From Mobula hypostoma (lineage: Eukaryota), in contig NC_086097.1 of the NCBI RefSeq assembly GCF_963921235.1, positions 139,502,001 to 139,566,000 of the forward strand: a stretch of 64,000 nt of DNA, written 5' to 3'. Each line of letters starts with the position of its first letter. Positions within the stretch are counted from its first letter, which is position 1. The notes beneath the pieces were generated by a model. It did no database searches, had not been told where the DNA came from, and worked only from the letters and a program-made list of their open reading frames with translations. This document shows positions 17,271 through 63,420 of the stretch, piece after piece. Made by a program: the position numbers and the translations under genes.

Positions 17271-17795
17271 GTTAAAAAGCATAGTCCTTTTGGCCCAACT
17301 TGTCCAATTTAGCCCATATCCGCCTGTCTTTCCTATCCATTACCTGTATAAGCAAGTTTTACTGGGTTAATCCTGTGATGAAGGGGTTAATGTACAAAAA
17401 AAGAATGCGCAGGTTTGGTTGAAATTTTTGGATTTGAGAAAAATGAGGAGTAATTTTGTTTGGGTGGGTAGGGGGGTATTGGTTGAAATGTTGTTCCTCC
17501 TGGTGAGGCATCTAGAATAAAGCATAGTTTCAGAATAAGGTATTGTCCATTTCAGATGAGGAATCTCACAGGCAATCAAATCTTTGGAATTCACTTTGCA
17601 AACTGAGGAAGTCAATGGGTACGGGGAGTAACTGGGAGGGTGATGATGAGGTCAAGATTAGATTGGCTGCAATCTCATAAAATAGCAGGGAAATTGAGGG
17701 GCTGACTGGCCTAATCCTGTTGATCATAATCTGGTGAGATTTCAGACATTTGCAACAAATGAGGAAAACTAAAAACAAACTGCCCTAATTTTAAA

Positions 17796-18018
17796 AGCAA
17801 CACACATCAAAGTTGCTGGTGAACGCAGCTGGCCAGGCAGCATCTCTAGGAAGAGCTACAGTGTCGTTTCCAGCCGAGACCCTTCGTCAGGACTGATAAA
17901 GGGTCTCAGCCCGAAACGTGACTGTAGCTCTTCCGAGAGATGCTGCCTGGCCTGCTGCGTTCACCAGCAACTTTGATGTGTGTTGCTTGCATTTCCAGCA
18001 TCTGCAGAATTCATGTTA
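17796..18018. mobile_element. Palindromic (inverted-dimer) Penelope-derived mini-element with a hammerhead-like motif on each strand, about 10-bp TSD
   Basis: Arms about 17795-17890 and 17893-17988 are reverse complements; TAATTTTAAA at 17786-17795 and 18019-18028. Confidence 0.85.
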
Positions 18019-18528
18019 TAATTTTAAAGCAATTGAGATCAGCCAAAAAAAAAATTGAACGATTTAGACACGAACTGGGTGTTTCATTGCTAGAACTCTA
18101 GGGAAAACCAAATGAACAGAAACCATCTTTTCAAATTATACACACTTATGATCCAACAAAAATACAAGTGATGCATGGATTATGGTTTTGTCATCATCTA
18201 CGCAGGTTAAAGAAAGGAGAAATACTGAGATGCACTTGAAGGAGAGTTAATTTCTGTCACTGTAAATGTAGCACTTGCTTCACCGGTGGGTTACAACTAA
18301 TCTCTAAATCTTTACACAGAATTGTTTATTACTACAGCCATCAAAAATCCAAATCCAAATGTATATCCAAAATTTGTGCACTTTTAACATTATCTTTTTG
18401 GAGAAAAGCACAAGGAAATTTTAGTGCCACATTAGAATCCTTTTTAAGTAATAGTTTTGCATGAGAATATTGTATCAGCAGGTTCCAGGTGCCAATAAGT
18501 ACTGATAACTATTATACTTGAATCTCAC

Positions 18529-18580
18529 CTGATCAGCATGTTTCGTAGGATTGTGAAGTCACAGTGCTCACTATTTTCAA
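18529..18580 (-). CDS. SEPTIN7: SEPTIN7 coding exon (52 nt): (V)ENSEHCDFTILRNMLI(R)
   Basis: Minus strand CAG|TTGAAAAT...GATCAG|GTGAG; septin unique element HCDF motif. Confidence 0.96.
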
Positions 18581-38819: not shown

Positions 38820-39330
38820 CTGAAAATCAAACATTGGAAAAGTGATCAATTAATCATGGTCCCAGCATGGAATTTGCAATAATTATGGAATTTGTGATAA
38901 TAGATAAACACAAAATGAGAAAGAATCAACAAATAGTGTTACTTTTTATTTTTGTTACAAAATACTGTGGGGCATTGGATATAATATGACTGTAGATTTG
39001 GTTGGCAGTTACAGCAGAGACTCTCAAACTCTCCAGTCTGAGGACACCTGAACAGATATTTCAGGTTGCAGTGCTACCTCAATCTTCATCTGTGAGACAT
39101 TTTCTGACATGCCACAACAGCCATGGCCATTGCTCATCACCTTGACTACCACTTTTCTCCAAAGAACTCTAAACCCTCAAATCCCACACTTTCCCTGATA
39201 CCCCCACTTTCTAAATTCTTTCCTACCATACAAATCTAATATTGATCCCAGTTGTAGAATAACAGGGTTGATCCATTTGTTATCACTGATAGAATGAATT
39301 AACAACAGAAAAACACCAGTACAGATGCAT

Positions 39331-39459
39331 ACAACAGGAATTCTGCAGATGCTGGAAATTCAAGCAACACACATCAAAGTTGCTGGTGAACGCAGCAGGC
39401 CAGGCAGCATCTGTAGGAAGAGATGCAGTCGACATTTCAGGCCGAGACCCTTTGTCAGG
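39331..39459 (-). mobile_element. Penelope-derived mini-element (129 bp) with hammerhead motif, perfect 10-bp TSD
   Basis: ACAGATGCAT at 39321-39330 and 39460-39469; minus strand GTC-CTGACAA-A-GGGT-CTCG-GCCT-GAAA-TG-TC-GACTG. Confidence 0.85.
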
Positions 39460-40191
39460 ACAGATGCATCTCTACTTATAATAAGGGATTTAATAGGAAA
39501 AGGTGTTGTGCATTATGGAAAACTGTGATATTGACTGTTTTCCAGCAACTCAATCTTTCTATAATGTGTGGTTCCCTATACATCCATTTTCTTCTAATTT
39601 TTTCTGGCAAAATTAACCAAAATATTATTTCTTTAAAGCGTTTCTCAGAGATTCTTGTGTGACCTTCAGTTTGTTTGCCTGTTCTACTTTTCACCCTGTA
39701 AACTTTGGAAATTAGGATTTTGGATCACAATCTTAAACTACGATGGCCTTGTTCATCCAAACCCATACAGTTTCTTCCCTCAAATTTCTGGCTCAGTTTT
39801 GTAATTATTACAAACTGAACAACCATCTGGTGTATGTTTTCAGCAGCCTTGACCTTGAGCTCTGAAATTCCAAGCTCCCCAAACCTCTCTTTCTCTATCG
39901 CTCTTTCCTTCTTAAAGATGCACCTTCTAATATCTCACTTCACATTTAGTGAAATTTAAACTAGCACTCACTGTCCAACAATGCAAAAGAGTTAATAGTA
40001 ATGCCAGAATTGATGAGTGTTGTAACTACAGAGGTTCTTCAGTGTTATACGAGTGCTCATGAGAAGTCTTACTCAAGAAATGGAATTGACAGATACAGGA
40101 ATTATGATCAAGGTAATCTGAGATCTTCTTTGTAGTCAGTGGTAGGGAGCTACTTTCTGTTCTATTTCATTGAAAATATTATCTTCAACTT

Positions 40192-40562: not shown

Positions 40563-40565
<3 letters not shown>

Positions 40566-40614
<49 letters not shown>

Positions 40615-40681
40615 ATATATACACACACACACACACATACATACACACACACACATATATAAATAAATAAAATAAAATAAA
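40566..40681. repeat. Compound microsatellite (TG)n-(TA)n-(CA)n-(A3-4T)n
   Basis: Directly visible; ends about 20 nt from the exon donor at 40702. Confidence 0.95.
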
Positions 40682-43642: not shown

Positions 43643-44073
43643 TGAGGGGTGATTGATAAGTTTGTGGCCTACGGTAGGAGTCAATTTTAGAAAACCTAGC
43701 ATATTTATTTTTCAATTTAGTCCCCTCCTACATTTACACACTTAATCCAGCGGTCGTGGAGCATACGGATCTTGGACCTCCAGAAAGTGTCTATAGCAGG
43801 GGTGATTGATAAGTTCGTGGCCTAAGGTAGAAGGAGATGAGTTATACAGCTCTCGTTATATACACATGCAGTTCAACTCTTTAAGTGATTATGCAGAAAG
43901 TTTGAGGTTAATAACCCACCTCCTTCTACCTTAGGCCACAAACTTATCAATCACCCCTGATGAGTTATTAACTTCCAACTTTCTGCATAATCACTCAAAG
44001 AGTTGAACTGCATGTGCATGTAACAGAAGCTGCATAACTCATCTCCTTAGGCCACAAATTTATCAATCACCCC
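43643..44073. mobile_element. Mariner-type MITE, rearranged, with four copies of the TIR
   Basis: GGGGTGATTGATAAGTT-GTGGCCTA at about 43646 and 43799; its reverse complement at about 43932-43958 and 44048-44073. Confidence 0.7.
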
Positions 44074-47000
44074 AAGTCAAGTCAGTCAATATCTGACTTG
44101 TAATGAACTGTGTTCCTGAATTAAAACAGGCAGAATAAAACCAGGATTCAACTCCAATGCACTTGTACACTACGCCTGACATCCTCAGATCCTCCATTTC
44201 AAAACTTTGATCTTAAAGATGAGACTTTGTGTGAGCACCATCTTCATAAAGCTGCAACTACTCAACAAACAGGGCCATGTTTTTGCAATTGATAGAGAGC
44301 TCATTACCGAGCCATCATCCAAAATTATTAGTGCAGGTATATGGTCATTGCGTTATTCTGAGAGAAAAGTCCAAAGCAAAAATTGTAGAAGTAATGAAAA
44401 TTTAACTAGCAAATTCTGTTCTTTAAAAGTTGCAGCAGAACTTTTCATATGAAGACTAAATGAAATTCCTGGTAGAGTTTTGTTGCAATTTCAACTTTCT
44501 TTTTAAAAAAAAAGATAGACAAATTGTGATCTTCTGTAGTTGTTTCAACTGCTTAAGACTCTGCAACTGAAATTTCCATCCTTCCCTCAATTTAGATGAG
44601 CCTTCCTGTTACCACAGCTGGAACTAATAAAGAGTTGAAATACAAATAACGCTTGCCAATCCTCTCACACAATGTGTGACTTACCATAAGGATAAAGATA
44701 TAACCAGTAGAGCAAGGCACTAAGAAGCAATGTGACTTGTATTGCAAAACCAAACAGTCGATACATCATTTACATGGAGATCTAGAAAACACAGCCATTC
44801 AAAGCAAGACCTCCAAATCCAACTGAGCTTAGTTGTCACATCAAACTGATGATAAAATCAATCTGAAGCAGGAACAGAATCAGGAACAAAAATGCTTCAA
44901 AGTTGCAAAAATATAGTTGTTAAATAGCAGTTTGTCCCAGAAACTATATAGCTTTCATACTCTGGCAACCAGAAATATGCCACTTAATAAAAGAGGAACC
45001 ACACTTTGAAATGTTTTTTTATAAACTGTCATTTAACCAACGGATTTCAAATAGCAACTCAAAATGCTAGAGGAATTCATCAGATCAGACAGCATCAATG
45101 AAGGGAAAAGGACACTTGACTTTTCAGATTGAAACCATTCACCACGACTGTAGAGAGAGGGGGCAGGTCAGTATATTAAGGGGTTAGAGCAAGAGCTGGC
45201 AGAACTCGACTTTCCTATTTGTCACTTTAGCTACAGTTATTGTATCTAATTACCCTCATCAGGGAGAGAGATGATACAGCTTGCTACCCATTATCTGATA
45301 TGAAAGAATGAATGTAATTCCATACCTACATAATTTTACCGTAGTGATGAAAGAGCAAGGAACATGGCACAACATGGCCAGCTGAAAGCAACAGTGCTGA
45401 GCAACGAGTGAATCATGGAACTTCCATAATTTTCATTTCTTGTGTATTTTTTTTAACATCCTGAAGTTGCTTATTCAGGAGGAACAAAATATACAGCATT
45501 GAAACAATAGCACATATTCAACAATTTTACCAGTAATCTTGTTTTCACAGATTATTGACAAGCAAATTTCCATAAATATAGTTACTGACCAAAACCAATC
45601 ACATAATTAAAAAAATTAAGTGTGGACCATATAACATACACCCTCTTCCACATAATATTCAGTGGTTACATAATTTGGACGAACTCCCTTTCAGAATCAA
45701 CAGACTAGACAACTAACCTTAAAATGGTCTTAACTGCTGCTTCAAACAAGAAATAATCAAAATGCTAACCTGTCAGAAAATTAGGATTATAACAGATTGG
45801 TCATTTTGGTTGAATTCTGGCTCTAACTGTTGGATTCATAGAGAAAGATGAAAGCTGCAAATGAGTGTGTGTAATCTACAAATAAATCTTCGGTACCGTA
45901 ATCAATGGCTGCATTCAGCAGCACACAACAGGGAAGTCTCCAAATCAAGAGCTCAAAGATTTGCATCACAGATTCCATGATTCCACATTCCTTTATTTAC
46001 TGAATTCAAAGGTTGGTTCTACACAGAGCTGATTATATTTCACCCTCCTCACACCAGGATGAACAATTACCTAAATCTATAAAGTATACTCAACATATGA
46101 TTCAATTCATGGCTCTTGATTTGATATTTCCCTATCCTTCCTACCCAGTCTTCAACAACACATTGCTCTACTGATGTAATCCCCAGACTGGCTGTTTGAT
46201 TCATAACATAAATCAGAAAACATTTTCCACAGCATTGCAGTTTGATTTAAAGTTAAAAGTGCCCAAAGGGAAGGACTTCTACAAATTTCTCACTCCTTCC
46301 CATTGGTCAATTTATAAACGATTATCTTCTAACATTGCTTGAGTTAGACTCAACCCCTCCCCTCCCCCATCAATTTTCACAGAGGAAATTAGAGAAAGCC
46401 TACATTTATCAAGAAAGGTTTCTAAACCTCACATGCATTAGGGCCACCATACATGGGAAAAGTACAAAATGGAAAAAAAAACAACTGGAAACAATCCAGA
46501 GAATGTTCGTATAAACAACAGATTCACATAACAATCTCTGACCATATTCCATCATCTGGTTTTCACATCATTCCCATGAGAATTCTGGAAACCAGAATCC
46601 AATTCTTGGCATTCCAAGCTTACACTTCAAATCACAGCATTCCCCACTATCATTTTACTTTATTAAACTGACAAATTTATATCCCTTCAGAATGCTTCCA
46701 CTGAAAAAACATACGTACATATTTGAGATATTTTTAGCTAGTCAATGATAATCAAAGAAAATAGTTAGTTTAGGTCAAAGATGTTAATGGCTTAGGCTGT
46801 GGGAAATAAGATCCCTTTTTAAAAGAAAAATAGTTGACATTCATGTCACTGAACCAAGGACTGCAAACAAAGTACTATCTTAGTGTTTCCAGATGCCATT
46901 ATGTGCAACTCTGCATTTGCATCATGTTAAACCCAGTTGTTCAGACAATATATTGAAGGCAAAATCATGTCACTTTCTCTACAAGGGTTAATGAAAGGAC

Positions 47001-47439: not shown

Positions 47440-49460
47440 CCCACCGCCCCCCAGTTCAGTCCCTTCCTATCTTCACACTTCACACACCGTGGATCTTTTA
47501 AATGATTTCAAGTTCCCTGGCCCCTATCATCTTATCTTCACTATGGATGTCCAGCCCCCACCAGGAAGGCCTCAAAGCTCTGTTTCTTTCTGGACATCAG
47601 ACCCAACCAGTTCCCTCCATCACCACTCTCCTCCGTTTAGCTGAACTTGTCCTCACTCTTAATAATTTCTCCTTTGGCTCCTCCCACTTCCTTCAAACAA
47701 AAGATGTAGTCATGAACCACATCAAAGTTGCTGGTGAACACAGCAGGCCAGGCAGCATCTCCAGGAAGAGGTATAGTTGACGTTTCAGGCCGAGGGTCTT
47801 GGCCCAAAACGTCGACTGTACCTCTTCCTAGAGATGCTGCCTGGTCTGCTGCATTCACCAGCAACTTTGATGTGTGTTGCTTGAATTTCCAGCATCTGCA
47901 GAATTCCTCATGTTTATGTAGTCATGAACACTTGCATTGGTCCCAGCTATGCCTACGTTTTTGTCGGCAACATGAAACAGTCGATGTTCCAAGTCCCAAT
48001 TTTCCTACGCTACATCGATGACTACATTGGTGCTGCTTCCTACACCCATGTGGAGCTCGTCGACTTCATCCATTTTACCCCCAACTTCCACCCTGGTCCA
48101 TTAAGTTTACCTGGTCCATTTCCGACACCTCCCTCCCCTTTCTCAATCTGTCTCTATCTCTGGAGACAACTCATCTAATGATGTCTATTATAAACCTACG
48201 ACTCTCACAGCTACTTAGACTATACCTCTACCCACCCTGTTACTTGTAAAGGCACCATCCCCTTCTCTCAATTCCTCCGTCTCCACTGCACCTGCTCTCA
48301 GGGTGAGGCTTTGCATTCCAGAATGAAAGAGATATCCTCCTTTTTCAAAGAAAGGGACTTTCCTTCCTCCACCAATGCTGCCCTCAACCTCAATTTGTCT
48401 ATTTCACACACGTCTGCTCTCACCCCATCCTCCTGCCGCCCTACCAGGGATAGGGCTCCTCTTGTCCTCACCTACCAGTCTCCACATCCAGCACATAATT
48501 CTCCAGAACTTCCACCATCTCCAACAGGACCCCACCACCAAGCACATCATTCCATCCCCTCCCACTTTCTGTTTTCCGCAGGGATCGCTCCCTACGCGAC
48601 TCCCTTGTCCATTCATCTGCCCCCTCTGATATCCCTCCTGGCACTTATCTTTGCAAGCAAAATAAGTGCTACACCTGCCCCTACACCTCCTCCCTCACTA
48701 CCATTCAGGGCCCCAAACAGTTCTTCCAGGTGAGACGACACTTCACCTGAGAATCTGTTGAGGTTATATACTGTGTCCGGTGCTCCCAGTGTCGCCTCAT
48801 GTATATCGGTGAGACCTGCTGTAGATTGTGAGACAGCTTCACCGAGCACCTACGATCCTTCCACTATAAAAAGCGGGATCTCCCAGTGACCACCCATTTT
48901 AATTCCACTTCCTATTCCCATTCCAATATGTCAATCCATGGCCTCCTCTACCGTCACGACGAGGGCACATTCAGTTTGGAAGAACATGTTATATTCTGTC
49001 TGGGTAGCCTCCAATCTGATGGCACAAACATTGATTTCTCAAACTTTGGGTAATGCACCCACCTTCACCAATCCCCACCCCCTTTTCCCTCTTTCACTTT
49101 ATCTCCTTGCCTGCCCATCACCTCCCTCAGGTGCTCCACCCTCTTTTCTTTCTTCATGGCCTTCTATCCTCTCCTACTAGATGCCCCCTTCTCCAGTCCT
49201 GTATCTCTTTCACCAATCAACTTCCCAGCTCTTCATTTCACCTCTCCTCCTCCCAGTTTCACCTATCACCTTGTGTTTCTCTCTCCCCTACCCCCACCTT
49301 CTGAATCTACTCCCTATCTGTTTTTCTCGTCCTGCTGAAAGGTCTTGGCCTGAAACATCGATTGTACTCTTTTCTGCAGATACAGCCTGGTCTGCTGAGT
49401 TCCTCCAGCATTTTATGTGAGTTGCTTGGATTTCCAGCATCTGCAGATTTTCTCTTGTTA
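47440..49460 (+). mobile_element. Penelope-like element (Neptune-type), 5'-truncated and decayed: RT, Cys linker, GIY-YIG endonuclease and terminal repeat with hammerhead motif
   Basis: LIFTMDV, LVLTLNNFSF, GPSYA, FLRYIDD (YIDD 48011-48022), CKQNKCYTC linker, VIY (48763-48771) and YIGET (48802-48816); hammerhead-like motif at about 49329-49364. Confidence 0.9.
47718..47915. mobile_element. Palindromic Penelope-derived mini-element inserted into the Penelope RT, perfect 14-bp TSD
   Basis: ATGTAGTCATGAAC at 47704-47717 and 47916-47929; arms about 47718-47793 and 47799-47873 are inverted. Confidence 0.9.
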
Positions 49461-51809: not shown

Positions 51810-54082
51810 TAGAGCCTATAAAGTATTCACCACCCACCCCCCACCCCGCCCCTGCCTTTTTCAGGTTTTATTGTTTTACAACATTGAATCACGGTGGATT
51901 TAATTTGGCTTTTTTGACACTAATCAACAAAGAAACATTCCTTTGTGTCAAAGTGAAATCAGATCTCTACAAAGTGGCCATTTTCAAAAACTCTCTACAA
52001 ATCTCTTCATCAACCGTGGGATTGAGATTAAGAGCTGAGAGGTAATGTTGCAGATACATAGCACCCTGTTCTGACCCCACTTGGAGAACTGTGTGCAGTT
52101 CTGGTCGCCTCACTACAGGAAGGACGTGGAAACCATAGAAAGGGTGCAGTGGAGATTTACAAGGATGTTGCCTGGATTGGGGAGCATGCCTTATGAGTAT
52201 AGGTTGAGTGAACTTGGCCTTTTCTCCTTGGAGTGACGGAGGATGAGAGGTGACCTGATAGAGGTGTACAAGATGATGAGAGGCATTGATCATGTGGATA
52301 GTCAGAGGCTTTATCCCAGGGCTGAAATGGCTAGCACGAGAGGCCATAGTTTTAAAGGTGCTTGGAAGTAGGTACAGAGGAGATGTCAGGGGTAAGTTTT
52401 CTTTTCTACGCGGGGGGGGGGGGGTGCTGCCAGTGTTGGCAGTGGAGGCAGAAACGATAGACTCTTAAGAGACTCCTGGATAGGTACATGGAGCTTAGAA
52501 AAATAGAGGGCTATAGGGAAGCCAAGGTAATTTTTTAAGGTAAGGACATGTTCGGCACAGCTTTGTGGGCCAAAGGGCCTGTATTATGCTGTAGGTTTTC
52601 TATGTTCTAAAGTAATCTAAATTAATTACAAATATAAAACACAAAATAATTGATTAGATAAGTATTTCACACCCTTCAAGTCAGTATTTAGTAGGTGCAC
52701 CTTTGGCAGCAACTACAGCCTTGAGTCTGTGTAGATAGGTCTCTATCAGCTTTGCACATCTGAACACTACAACTTTCCCCCATTCTTCTTTACAAAACTG
52801 CTCAAACTCTTGTCAGATTGTATGGACATCTTGAGTGAACAACTTTTTCAAGCCCAGCCACAAATTCTCAATTGGATTTAAGTCTGAACTCTGAATTGGC
52901 CACTCCAGGACATTAACTTTGTTTGTTTTAAGCCATTCCTATATGCTTTGGCTTTATGCTTGGGGTCACTGTCTCGCTGGAAAATAAGTCTTCTCCTAAG
53001 TCGCAGTTCTCTGCGGACTGCATCAGGTCCTCCAGGATTTCCCTGCATTATGCTGCATTCATTTTACCCTCTACCTTCACAAACCTTCTTGTGCCTACTG
53101 CAGTGAAGCATCCGCACAGCATGATGCACCCACCATCATACACCATGGTAGGGATGATGTGTTTTTGATTATATGCAGTGTTTGGCTTATGTCAAGCACA
53201 GCGTTTAGTCTGATGGCCAAAAAGCTCAAATTTGGTTTCATCAGACCATGGAACCTTCTTCCTGCTGACTTCAGAATCTTCCACATAACTTCTGGCAAAA
53301 TTTAGCCGAGATTTCATGCGAGTTTTTTTTCCCTCCAGTGGCTTTCTCTTTGCCACTCTCCCATAAGCTGCGACTGGGACAACAGCAGTTAGATGCGCAG
53401 TCTCTCCCGGCTCAGCCACTGAAGCTTGTAACTCCTCCAGAGTTGTCATAGGTCTATTGGTGGCTTCCCTCACTAGTCCCATTTTTGCAGTCACTCAGTT
53501 TTTGAGGACTGCCTGCTCGAGGCAGATTTACAGCTGTGCCATATTCTTTCCATTTCTTGATGATTGACAACTGTACTCCAAGGGATATTCAGTGACTTGA
53601 AAATTTTATTGAATCCATCTCCTGACTTCTGCTTTTCAATAACCTTTTTGGGGAGTTGCTTGGAGTGTTCTTTCTCCTTCATGGTGTAGTTTTTGCCAGT
53701 ATACTGATTCACCAGCAGTTGGAACTTCCAGATACCGGTGTATCTTTACTACAATAAATTGAAACACCTCGACTGCGCACAGGTCTCCATTTAACTAATT
53801 ATGTGACTTCCAAAACCAATTGGTTGCACCAGTCATGATTTGGTCTGTCATATTAAAGTAGGGGGAGAATACTTATGCAATCAATTAATTTGTGTTTTCT
53901 ATTTGTAATTAATTTAGATCACTTTCTTGAGATCAGTTTTCACTTTGACATGAAAGAGTATTTTTCTGTTGATCAGTGTCACAAAAGCCAGATTAAATCT
54001 ACTGTGATTCAATGTTGTAAAACAATAAAACATGAAAACTTCCAGGGTGGGGAGAGAAGTGGAATACTTTTTATAGGCACTG
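51810..54082 (-). mobile_element. Full-length Tc1-family transposon with long IR/DR-type TIRs; transposase pseudogene at about 52683-53683; left TIR interrupted by CR1
   Basis: TA at 51808-51809 and 54083-54084; TIRs of over 200 bp; ORFs KEHSKQL...LNIPWSTV and WSDETKFELFG, then LWGCF, DPKH and DLNPIENLW read by hand; about 1.64 kb without the insert. Confidence 0.92.
51976..52608 (+). mobile_element. CR1 3' fragment nested in the Tc1 TIR
   Basis: PHLENCVQFWSPHYRKDVETIERVQ read by hand; TTCTATG-type tail; short AAAGT duplication at the junctions. Confidence 0.85.
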
Positions 54083-58179: not shown

Positions 58180-59405
58180 TCCAGTAAGTACACAAATTTT
58201 CTTTAAGTGTGGCATCCAAAAATGTGAAGAATGAAGCAATACTCAAGTGGGGGCCTCCCACTCCAGGACAAGTGACATCTTATATGTCCTCCTTTTCAGG
58301 AAAGTGTCCCCCTCCTCATCACCCACCTGCTATGGTTGATTGGGTCCTTGCACTCACCATATTCATTTCCCATACCCTTTGCTCTCATCCTGCCTTCCCA
58401 CAGACAGAAAAAGGATAGAGACCCCTTACTTTTCACCCCATCAGCCTATGCACCCAGTATCTCATTCTTTGACACTTCCGCCTACCACAACATTATCCCA
58501 CCACCAATCATATTTTCCCCCTTACCACCCATTTCTGTTTTCTGCAGGAACTTTTCACTCCATGACTCCCTGGTTTGCTCATTTTCCCCACCCATTTCAC
58601 CAACTCACACCCCCTCCCTACTCCTGCCTCCACTCGCGGCACTTGTCCCTCCAACTGTAGATGTAACATCTGCCCCTACACCATCTCACTGACCTCCACC
58701 CAGGCACCTAAACAGCCCTTCAAGTGAGGCAGAGATCTGCATACATCTCCTCCAACTTTGTCTATTGCATTTGGTAATCTCTGCACTGGTGAGACCAAGC
58801 AGAGACAAGGAGACTTCTTTGCTGAGTATATGCACTTTGTCCATCACAGCTCCTTGTTGCAAGTCATTTTAACGTCCTTCCCCCAATCCCACATTGATTT
58901 TCCTGACCTCTGCTACCTCCATTGCCAGGTTGAGGCCAAATACAAACTAGAAGAACACCATATTGTATACCATGTGGGCCATCTACAATCTGATGGCTAG
59001 AACTCTGACTTCTCCAAACTTGTCTAAACTTGCTCCTTTATTCCTTTCACTCCCTTTCTGACCCAGCCAGTCCCTCTCACACAGTCTTTCCAGGCCATCC
59101 AGTGACTCCTCTCCCCAATTCCCAGTTTCTTTTCCCTCCCCACACACTCTTTTTGCCCACACCCTCACACTCTTCCTACTATATCCTCTCCCAACACTGT
59201 TCCTACCTTCCCACCATATGTGCCAAATTTGGTTTCTTTTCCTCATCAAATTCTTGCCCCACTCATCCCCCTCAACTCTTTCTCATGGCCATCTTTCCGG
59301 TATTTATCAGTCCAGATCAAAAGTCTTGAACCAAAAAATTAACTATTTCCCTCTATGTTGGTTGACCTATTGAGTTCCGCCAGCAGTTTGGTTTTGAATC
59401 AGAGG
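58180..59405 (+). mobile_element. Old Penelope-like element 3' half (GIY-YIG remnant, pyrimidine tract, degenerate hammerhead/tail)
   Basis: Colinear with 48300-49460 (for example GETKQRQGDFFAEY and EEHHIVYHVGHLQSDG in ORF 58758..59000). Confidence 0.7.
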
Positions 59406-62400: not shown

Positions 62401-63237
62401 AAATTTCACAACTCAAATCATCAGTTGCCACAACCCATGTGGAAATTAAAAGGAAGGATACCAAATATGATAAACTTCAAAAAAAAACTGCAGATGCAGA
62501 AAATCTAATGAAAGATAGTGGGGCTGAAAAACTAGTTCCTTCTCTCTCTATACACTGCCCGATCTGCTGATCATACTAATGGTGTATTCCTTCTGAAATA
62601 GAATTTTCAAAAGCTTTGTGAACCACAGCCATCAATTTGCAAGTCATATTTTTCTGTATTTATCCGGGATAAAAGTTATCCTAGTTATCAGATCATTGAA
62701 TGGTCCCTGGAATAATAAGATGGTCTCTTGAAGTTCTGGCCTGTAATTTCTGTGTAACACTTCACTTTGCATTCAGTTATTATTTTCTCCTGTACCTCTA
62801 TGCATTGTGTTGAAATGATCTGTTATGGATGGCATACAAAATAAAGTTTTTCACATCTTTGTACATGTGAGAATAATAGACCAATTTACCAGTTATTGAG
62901 GTAGATAAATCTCACTCCTTGGAGGATTATTTTATTATATATTATACAAATGCAGTCTTAATCTGTCTCAAATCACATCATTCAGACTCGATTTCTGAAA
63001 CCCACCAAATGTAAAATTTCAAACAAAACATACAACTTCATAAAATTCTAAGTCAGTGGAGAAGAAATGAGAAATTAACTCAAAGATACAACTGCTATGA
63101 GGAATAATGGAAAATGTTACCAATTGTAATAGCACTCAAAACATTTTTCACGGGGAAAATACAAAACTATACAAAAGTGAATGTGGAGAACAGATTAAAA
63201 TAAAGTAGCTTTTTAAAAAGCTGAGAGAACTAAAGCC

Positions 63238-63420
63238 CAGGCAGCATCTATGGAGGGAAATGAACAGTTAATGTTTCGGACTGAAAACCATCATCTGAAG
63301 GGTCTTAGGTTGAAATGTCAACTGTTCATTTTCTTCCATAGATGCTGCCTCACCTACTGAGTTACTACAGAAATTTGTGTAGTTGCTCAAGTTTTCCAGC
63401 ATCTAAAGAATCTTGTGTTC
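63238..63420. mobile_element. Third palindromic Penelope-derived mini-element (older subfamily)
   Basis: AGGCAGCATCTATGGAGGGAAATGAACAGTT... is inverted against ...AACTGTTCATTTTCTTCCATAGATGCTGCCT, followed by the family tail. Confidence 0.75.

Follow-up and report, generated by a model that had tools for sequence, protein, structure and literature searches.

How did a hairpin with a hammerhead-like motif on each strand come to lie between short direct repeats in the intron of a protein-coding gene? The locus occupies positions 17786-18028 of a 64,000-nucleotide stretch of the Mobula hypostoma genome (contig NC_086097.1, forward strand), the whole of which was analysed and which we call the window. 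The original prediction had left two answers side by side, a Penelope-style inverted repeat formed during integration or an independently mobilised, palindromic, retrozyme-like unit. Our analysis points to the former. Very probably, the hairpin consists of the 3' end of a Penelope-like element (PLE), present as two short copies in head-to-head orientation within one target-site duplication (TSD). It was likely left by a single insertion and is predicted to be inactive.

Host gene and anatomy of the hairpin

The host is a septin-7-like gene on the minus strand (about 1000-29025) with at least three exons, near 29.0 kb, at 18529-18580 and near 1.1 kb, the two neighbouring ones having been located with short motifs. 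The middle exon (18529-18580, minus strand) is 52 nt long, and its peptide finds its best matches among solved structures in Septin-7 (E 1e-5). As had been stated, the hairpin lies about 510 nt downstream of this exon in the pre-mRNA, i.e., 510 nt from the donor of the next intron, which spans about 17.4 kb. The introns of this gene are rich in LINE-like relics.

The insert comprises 223 bases. Its arms (17795-17890 and 17893-17988) pair at 87 of 96 positions in an ungapped alignment, with a spacer of 2 nt (GA) between them. Folding gave z-scores of -19.9 for the plus and -22.0 for the minus strand, and on either strand none of 200 shuffles folded equally well. From the folding model, a long double-stranded RNA stem is predicted in the septin-7-like pre-mRNA. 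The flanking TSD, TAATTTTAAA, measures 10 bp and is found at 17786-17795 and at 18019-18028; exact repeats of at least 10 bp appeared in none of 3000 random boundary pairs, the longest being a 9-bp repeat seen once. GCAA stands 3' of both copies of TAATTTTAAA, which gives an alternative TSD of 14 bp with one extra A, the left copy then extending to 17800. Under this 14-bp reading, the end of the target and the start of the tail-less arm are the same over six bases. The approximately 96-bp hairpin and its own TSD, both part of the original prediction, thus hold against these null distributions.

The two arms are asymmetric. The left one (17796-17892, minus strand) is an inverted, tail-less copy of the PLE 3' end, with native sequence through the GA and on to 17895 or 17896, where it overlaps with the right arm. 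The right arm (17893-17988, plus strand) has the same PLE 3' end in element sense and is continued by a 30-bp tail (17989-18018, plus strand) that is found on this side only. This tail had been overlooked in the original prediction, whose account of hairpin, TSD and motif details otherwise stands. The direct copy has a length of 126 bp, without any internal ORF. Between the arms, the inversion junction TCAG-GA-CTGA (17887-17896) consists of a 3-4-base microhomology around a 2-base loop that comes from the tail-less arm. The centre at 17.9 kb is located just before the hammerhead core, in agreement with the proposed axis of symmetry directly 5' of the catalytic core.

Assignment of the unit and age of the insertion

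With a profile made from six window copies, which match by construction as its seeds, 15 loci were found that together hold 18 matches (E up to 0.1). At three window loci the unit follows endonuclease relics at a distance of about 250-290 bp (49056 to 49331, 25129 to 24862 and 59021 to 59312). Because the same unit follows protein-end relics at three loci, we assign it by sequence to the 3' end, or pseudo-LTR, of a Penelope-like element. A long 5'-truncated PLE relic that ends in the hairpin's unit (47532-49460, plus strand) comprises an RT end, a Cys-rich linker, a GIY-YIG-like end and a pyrimidine-rich 3' region. For the local retroelement, the six best protein relatives found belong to two ray species and are 62-70% identical; two of the three that were scanned gave a GIY-YIG match (E 5e-4 and 2e-3, both below the curated cut-off). 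The window's own decayed RT and endonuclease frames gave no RT or GIY-YIG match in Pfam and NCBIfam. In the linker of the local family a Cys-x4-Cys-x2-Cys motif is seen, and this Cys-rich linker suggests an affinity to Neptune/Nematis as described in PMC8557442. At the hairpin itself, an inverted 5'-truncated copy, a one-sided 30-bp tail and a TSD at an AT-rich target are present, all features of EN+ PLE insertions. Minimal palindromes of this kind also place long stems of predicted dsRNA in the introns of host genes. Our literature search, which left most subscription papers aside, found no publication on a shark or ray family of this unit. Human Eulor5 and Eulor6 had been candidates for Penelope-linked repeats and were dropped, both being filed as Crypton in PMC5753468.

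Each arm contains the relic of a minimal hammerhead. The motif in pre-mRNA sense (17859-17896, minus strand) keeps the 5' strand of stem I and the core CUGACGA; the closing pair of stem II is lost, GAC stands for GUC with loss of U16.1, and the first G of the 3' strand of stem I is missing. The second motif (17893-17923, plus strand) begins at the core, which reads CUGAUAA with loss of G8; stem II is intact, C17 is missing and there is no proper 5' strand of stem I. These defects were scored against the family letters in the relatives' contigs and in the window copies. They bear out the earlier description of an intact minus-strand core, CTGACGA, with altered stem II and cleavage triplet, and of a plus-strand core CTGATAA without C17. 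A functional minimal type I hammerhead requires the core, G10.1-C11.1, U16.1, H17 and stem I, and neither arm has all of these. When the pre-mRNA strand is folded, the opposite arm takes up most bases of the motifs in pairs with probabilities of 0.8-1.0, and both motifs are predicted to be dead and buried in duplex. The Rfam search (18 matches at E up to 1) returned no hammerhead, the hairpin drawing only sub-threshold miRNA models. A strict hammerhead-like pattern matched ten times in the window, one match being in the hairpin's family, on the minus arm. According to PMC4209133, minimal hammerheads of PLEs are weak cutters that require dimer formation, and for an anole PLE hammerhead cleavage was unnecessary for insertion according to PMC11167929.

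Contigs of relatives bear on the age of the insertion. In the close relative B (8 differences in 487, all of them in the flank) the contig starts inside the tail at 18014, and B therefore carries the insert. The alignment of the E contig, with 30 differences in 456, goes from 18500 to 18045, and another 320 letters follow; the F contig, with 10 differences in 137, extends upstream from 18061 by 580 letters. An arm piece is listed for neither contig, while a 125-base piece would outrank pieces that are listed. E and F, about 7% apart, are probably without the insert; their alignments end at 18045 and 18061, short of the target copy, and a deletion would fit too. The contig of C starts at 18063, beyond the insert. 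Between the arms there are nine differences, four to five of them at CpG sites of the family sequence and none with a compensatory change. As the non-CpG differences, about 2.5-3% per arm, fall within the 0.8-3.5% per lineage estimated from B, E and F, the arms are consistent with having been identical at insertion and decaying since.

Formation of the palindrome

Head-to-head pairs occur at three of the 15 window loci (17.9, 47.8 and 63.3 kb), and the other 12 are single-armed. The second palindrome (47704-47929, plus strand) lies within an older PLE, in its RT frame, and is flanked by a 14-bp TSD. The RT frame broken by this 47.7-kb palindrome resumes in register across its 14-bp TSD, and so the interrupted frame at 47.8 kb is an internal empty-site control for such inserts. 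For the third, older palindrome (63236-63420, plus strand) no exact TSD was found. The centres differ in all three: before the hammerhead core at 17.9 kb, inside stem II with a 2-base overlap at 47.8 kb and inside the core at 63.3 kb. Likewise, the ends of the short arms differ in all three, the tail-less arms measuring about 96 bp, 77 bp and, much shorter in the third palindrome, 55-60 bp. This sample consists of three palindromes from the window, one of which belongs to an older subfamily. Among the 15 window loci there is no second copy with the centre of the 17.9-kb palindrome. Varying centres together with single arms at 12 of 15 loci make it more likely that the palindromes arose at insertion than that they form a family replicating as palindromes.

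A single-armed insertion of the same subfamily as the hairpin (39321-39469, minus strand) has a 10-bp TSD, and the TSD lengths at three loci are 10, 10 and 14 bp. The TSD search found no exact repeats of at least 6 bp at the 63.3-kb palindrome or at the long relic, and at 2.8 and 25.8 kb it gave only repeats of 6-7 bp, within the null range. The starts of several short copies (39458-39461, 2868-2870, 17890-17896 and 63295-63299) lie at most a few bases from the 5' edge of the hammerhead core and not at the cleavage site. The window also holds unrelated repeats: at 43805-44075 one whose inverted arms of 88 bp (43831-43918 and 43961-44048) match at 89% and which also has nested direct repeats, with a further partial copy near 43650; a 143-bp inverted pair (51834-51976 and 53920-54062, 81% complementary, 1.9 kb apart); and a hairpin-like (TG)n/(CA)n microsatellite (40563-40662) with sub-threshold Rfam miRNA matches.

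Loose contig ends in B, among the 24 of 443 rows listed, fall at 17987 (194 contigs), 17988 (188), 17989 (203) and 18012 (219). The two family ends, at 17987-17989 and just beyond 18012, are the ends used by the hairpin's two arms; the outer end of the tail-less arm (17796-17892) corresponds to the common tail-less end at 17987-17989, and the end beyond 18012 belongs to the tail, in keeping with tails of 30-40 bp in PMC8557442 and PMC11167929. It had been proposed to tell a replicating family from formation at insertion by shared inversion centres and ends. Within the window the centres differed in three of three palindromes, and the comparison of the ends was confounded by the two fixed family ends. 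Since ordinary single copies already use these two ends, a palindromic family could not be proved by outer ends held in common. None of the 13 joints listed changes strand, which is no evidence on centres since contigs break at such repeats. In E, contigs that reach about 18008-18013 resume, after 4-9 intervening letters, at about 17938, and the depth of these joints is as high as 443; they form head-to-tail arrays of an approximately 80-bp unit from the element's 3' end in which the hammerhead is absent, possibly a PLE-derived satellite. Single contigs in B have tandem joints from 18011 to 17920 and from 18012 to 17887, the former restarting at the predicted cleavage site; as the reference has a one-base gap there, this restart may be an alignment effect.

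As to the mechanism, we consider it rather probable that two cDNAs, each primed at its own nick and begun at its own start site, were joined at the 3-4-base microhomology. The GIY-YIG endonuclease would nick both strands of the AT-rich target, and each nick would prime reverse transcription on element RNA. Starting from the outer site, the reaction would yield the arm with the 30-bp tail, and from the inner site the tail-less arm. Both cDNAs would halt where the hammerhead begins on its 5' side and might then anneal via their 3-4-base match, CTG(A) with (T)CAG, with repair leading to the palindrome. We infer two primed cDNAs because self-copying of a tail-less cDNA would leave the tail without a source. 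The junction geometry also seems to fit a join of two primings better than the snap-back of a single cDNA. The native GA loop is on the tail-less arm at 17.9 and 63.3 kb and on the tailed arm at 47.8 kb; the 47.7-kb loop on the tailed arm also fits a weak 2-bp snap-back. In vitro, the anole Poseidon PAc enzyme cut and extended both strands of AT-rich DNA, and two RNA start sites bound the tail, as reported in PMC11167929. No publication on twin priming in PLEs came up in the search, outside which most subscription papers lay, and how PLEs make tandem or inverted insertions is still called undefined in PMC8557442. Minimal palindromes bounded by a TSD are clean records of the PLE junction; as a single locus, the hairpin carries little weight.

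With the same PLE origin, and differing in the mechanism step only, the inversion could have formed by fold-back self-priming at the native quasi-palindrome TCAG-TC-CTGA, for example on an antisense template. We regard this as possible and distinctly the less likely course, although it is the published reading: such palindromes are ascribed to self-priming on an antisense template by Arkhipova et al. (PMC3846280). The centre does lie on a native inverted match of 3-4 bp. Furthermore, both arms have G at 17927/17856, a position at which C makes up about 96% of the family depth in B, and at the GTCGAC site each arm lacks one base relative to the other copies. The G variant and the length change, common to both arms, point to one template or one source locus. 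Shared variants would also be expected if one source locus gave two RNAs or if the arms were later repaired against each other, and two independent deletions could account for the shared length change; the shared arm variants do not decide between the two-primer and self-priming models. A 2-nt loop, in addition, is sterically poor, and it is the loop-bearing arm that is tail-less, so that the longer arm would need a template switch.

Three further explanations depart from formation at a PLE insertion. A palindromic, non-autonomous unit, formed once and retrotransposing as a whole in a retrozyme-like or SINE-like manner, is improbable, and equally so is its extension, that palindromes centred on TCAG-GA-CTGA are a self-propagating, ORF-less hairpin family moved whole by PLE enzymes, of which this copy would be one offspring. 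The hairpin's own TSD, its compact size and the variants rare in the family that both arms share would suit such a unit, as would the derivation of non-LTR retrozymes from PLE pLTRs reported in bioRxiv 10.64898/2026.07.22.740005. Against it stand the three centres in three palindromes, with no repeat of the 17.9-kb centre among the 15 window loci, and the one-sided tail together with the use of both family ends, which is the outcome of a fresh PLE integration. A 96-bp duplex would presumably also be an unlikely template. Because the motifs are on opposite strands, they cannot form the tandem dimer needed by minimal hammerheads according to PMC4209133. The independent unit of the original prediction is thus not supported, given centres and short-arm ends that differ in three of three palindromes of the window, the one-sided PLE tail and the lack of a tandem array, whereas its Penelope-style alternative, formed in one integration event, is supported by the published PLE layout, the one-sided tail and the varying centres. 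A functional, exapted intronic hairpin, be it a miRNA precursor, an editing substrate or a splicing regulator of septin-7, is hardly to be expected either. The predicted long duplex would form in the pre-mRNA, with a small exon 510 nt away; however, it is probably absent in relatives about 7% apart, its arms differ at nine sites (four to five at CpG) with no compensatory change, and the sole Rfam match, mir-3926, scores 31 bits against a cut-off of 82. The long inverted repeat with a flanking duplication might finally recall a MITE of a DNA transposon or an inverted duplication after insertion. This we give next to no credence, as the repeats are internal and asymmetric instead of terminal, the TSD lengths vary (10, 10 and 14 bp) and the sequence is a PLE 3' end, an identity by which this explanation is largely refuted.

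Comparison with known systems

Twin priming in L1 elements involves two nicks, two primers and a join at microhomology, and it produces a 5' inversion inside one TSD. In L1, however, the inverted part is non-overlapping upstream sequence, whereas in the hairpin the same sequence was copied twice.

Non-LTR retrozymes (bioRxiv 10.64898/2026.07.22.740005) are likewise short, non-coding and derived from pLTRs, with a type I hammerhead. They form head-to-tail arrays or monomers with motifs on one strand; the hairpin, in contrast, is head-to-head with decayed motifs on opposite strands and by this arrangement does not count as a retrozyme. Its relics resemble the minimal type I hammerheads that metazoan PLEs carry (Cervera and De la Pena 2014, PMC4209133) in the short stem I, the unpaired base before stem II, the lack of helix III and the palindromic positions 15.2-16.2. 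Pairs of minimal hammerheads about 100-700 bp apart on opposite strands are described in the same paper, while here the two motifs stand back to back, with 2 nt between their cores, and each has mutations at conserved positions. With Poseidon PAc of the green anole, studied in vitro (Frangieh et al. 2024, PMC11167929), the locus shares the AT-rich target and, under the proposed mechanism, cutting and extension of both strands and two RT start sites bounding the tail; that element belongs to another clade, the Cys-rich linker of the local family being suggestive of Neptune/Nematis.

The closest likeness is to the insertions of EN+ PLEs. The typical PLE layout, according to PMC8557442 and PMC8969392, has an adjacent copy that is inverted and 5'-truncated, with a tail of 30-40 bp on one side only, and PMC3846280 describes overlapping inverted pLTRs, junction palindromes and TSDs of 8-10 bp. 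Like Pen2a_Av (PMC3846280) and the insertions in Fig. 2 of PMC8557442, the hairpin has a head-to-head copy, an overlap at the junction and a shorter inverted arm, and it shares with the EN+ PLE insertions of both papers the one-sided 30-bp tail, a TSD of about 10 bp and an AT-rich target. In contrast to insertions of the Pen2a_Av type as described there, it has no internal ORF, the direct copy is only 126 bp long and the whole insert is a 223-bp hairpin. The pattern is already known, and the hairpin is an ordinary PLE example of it.
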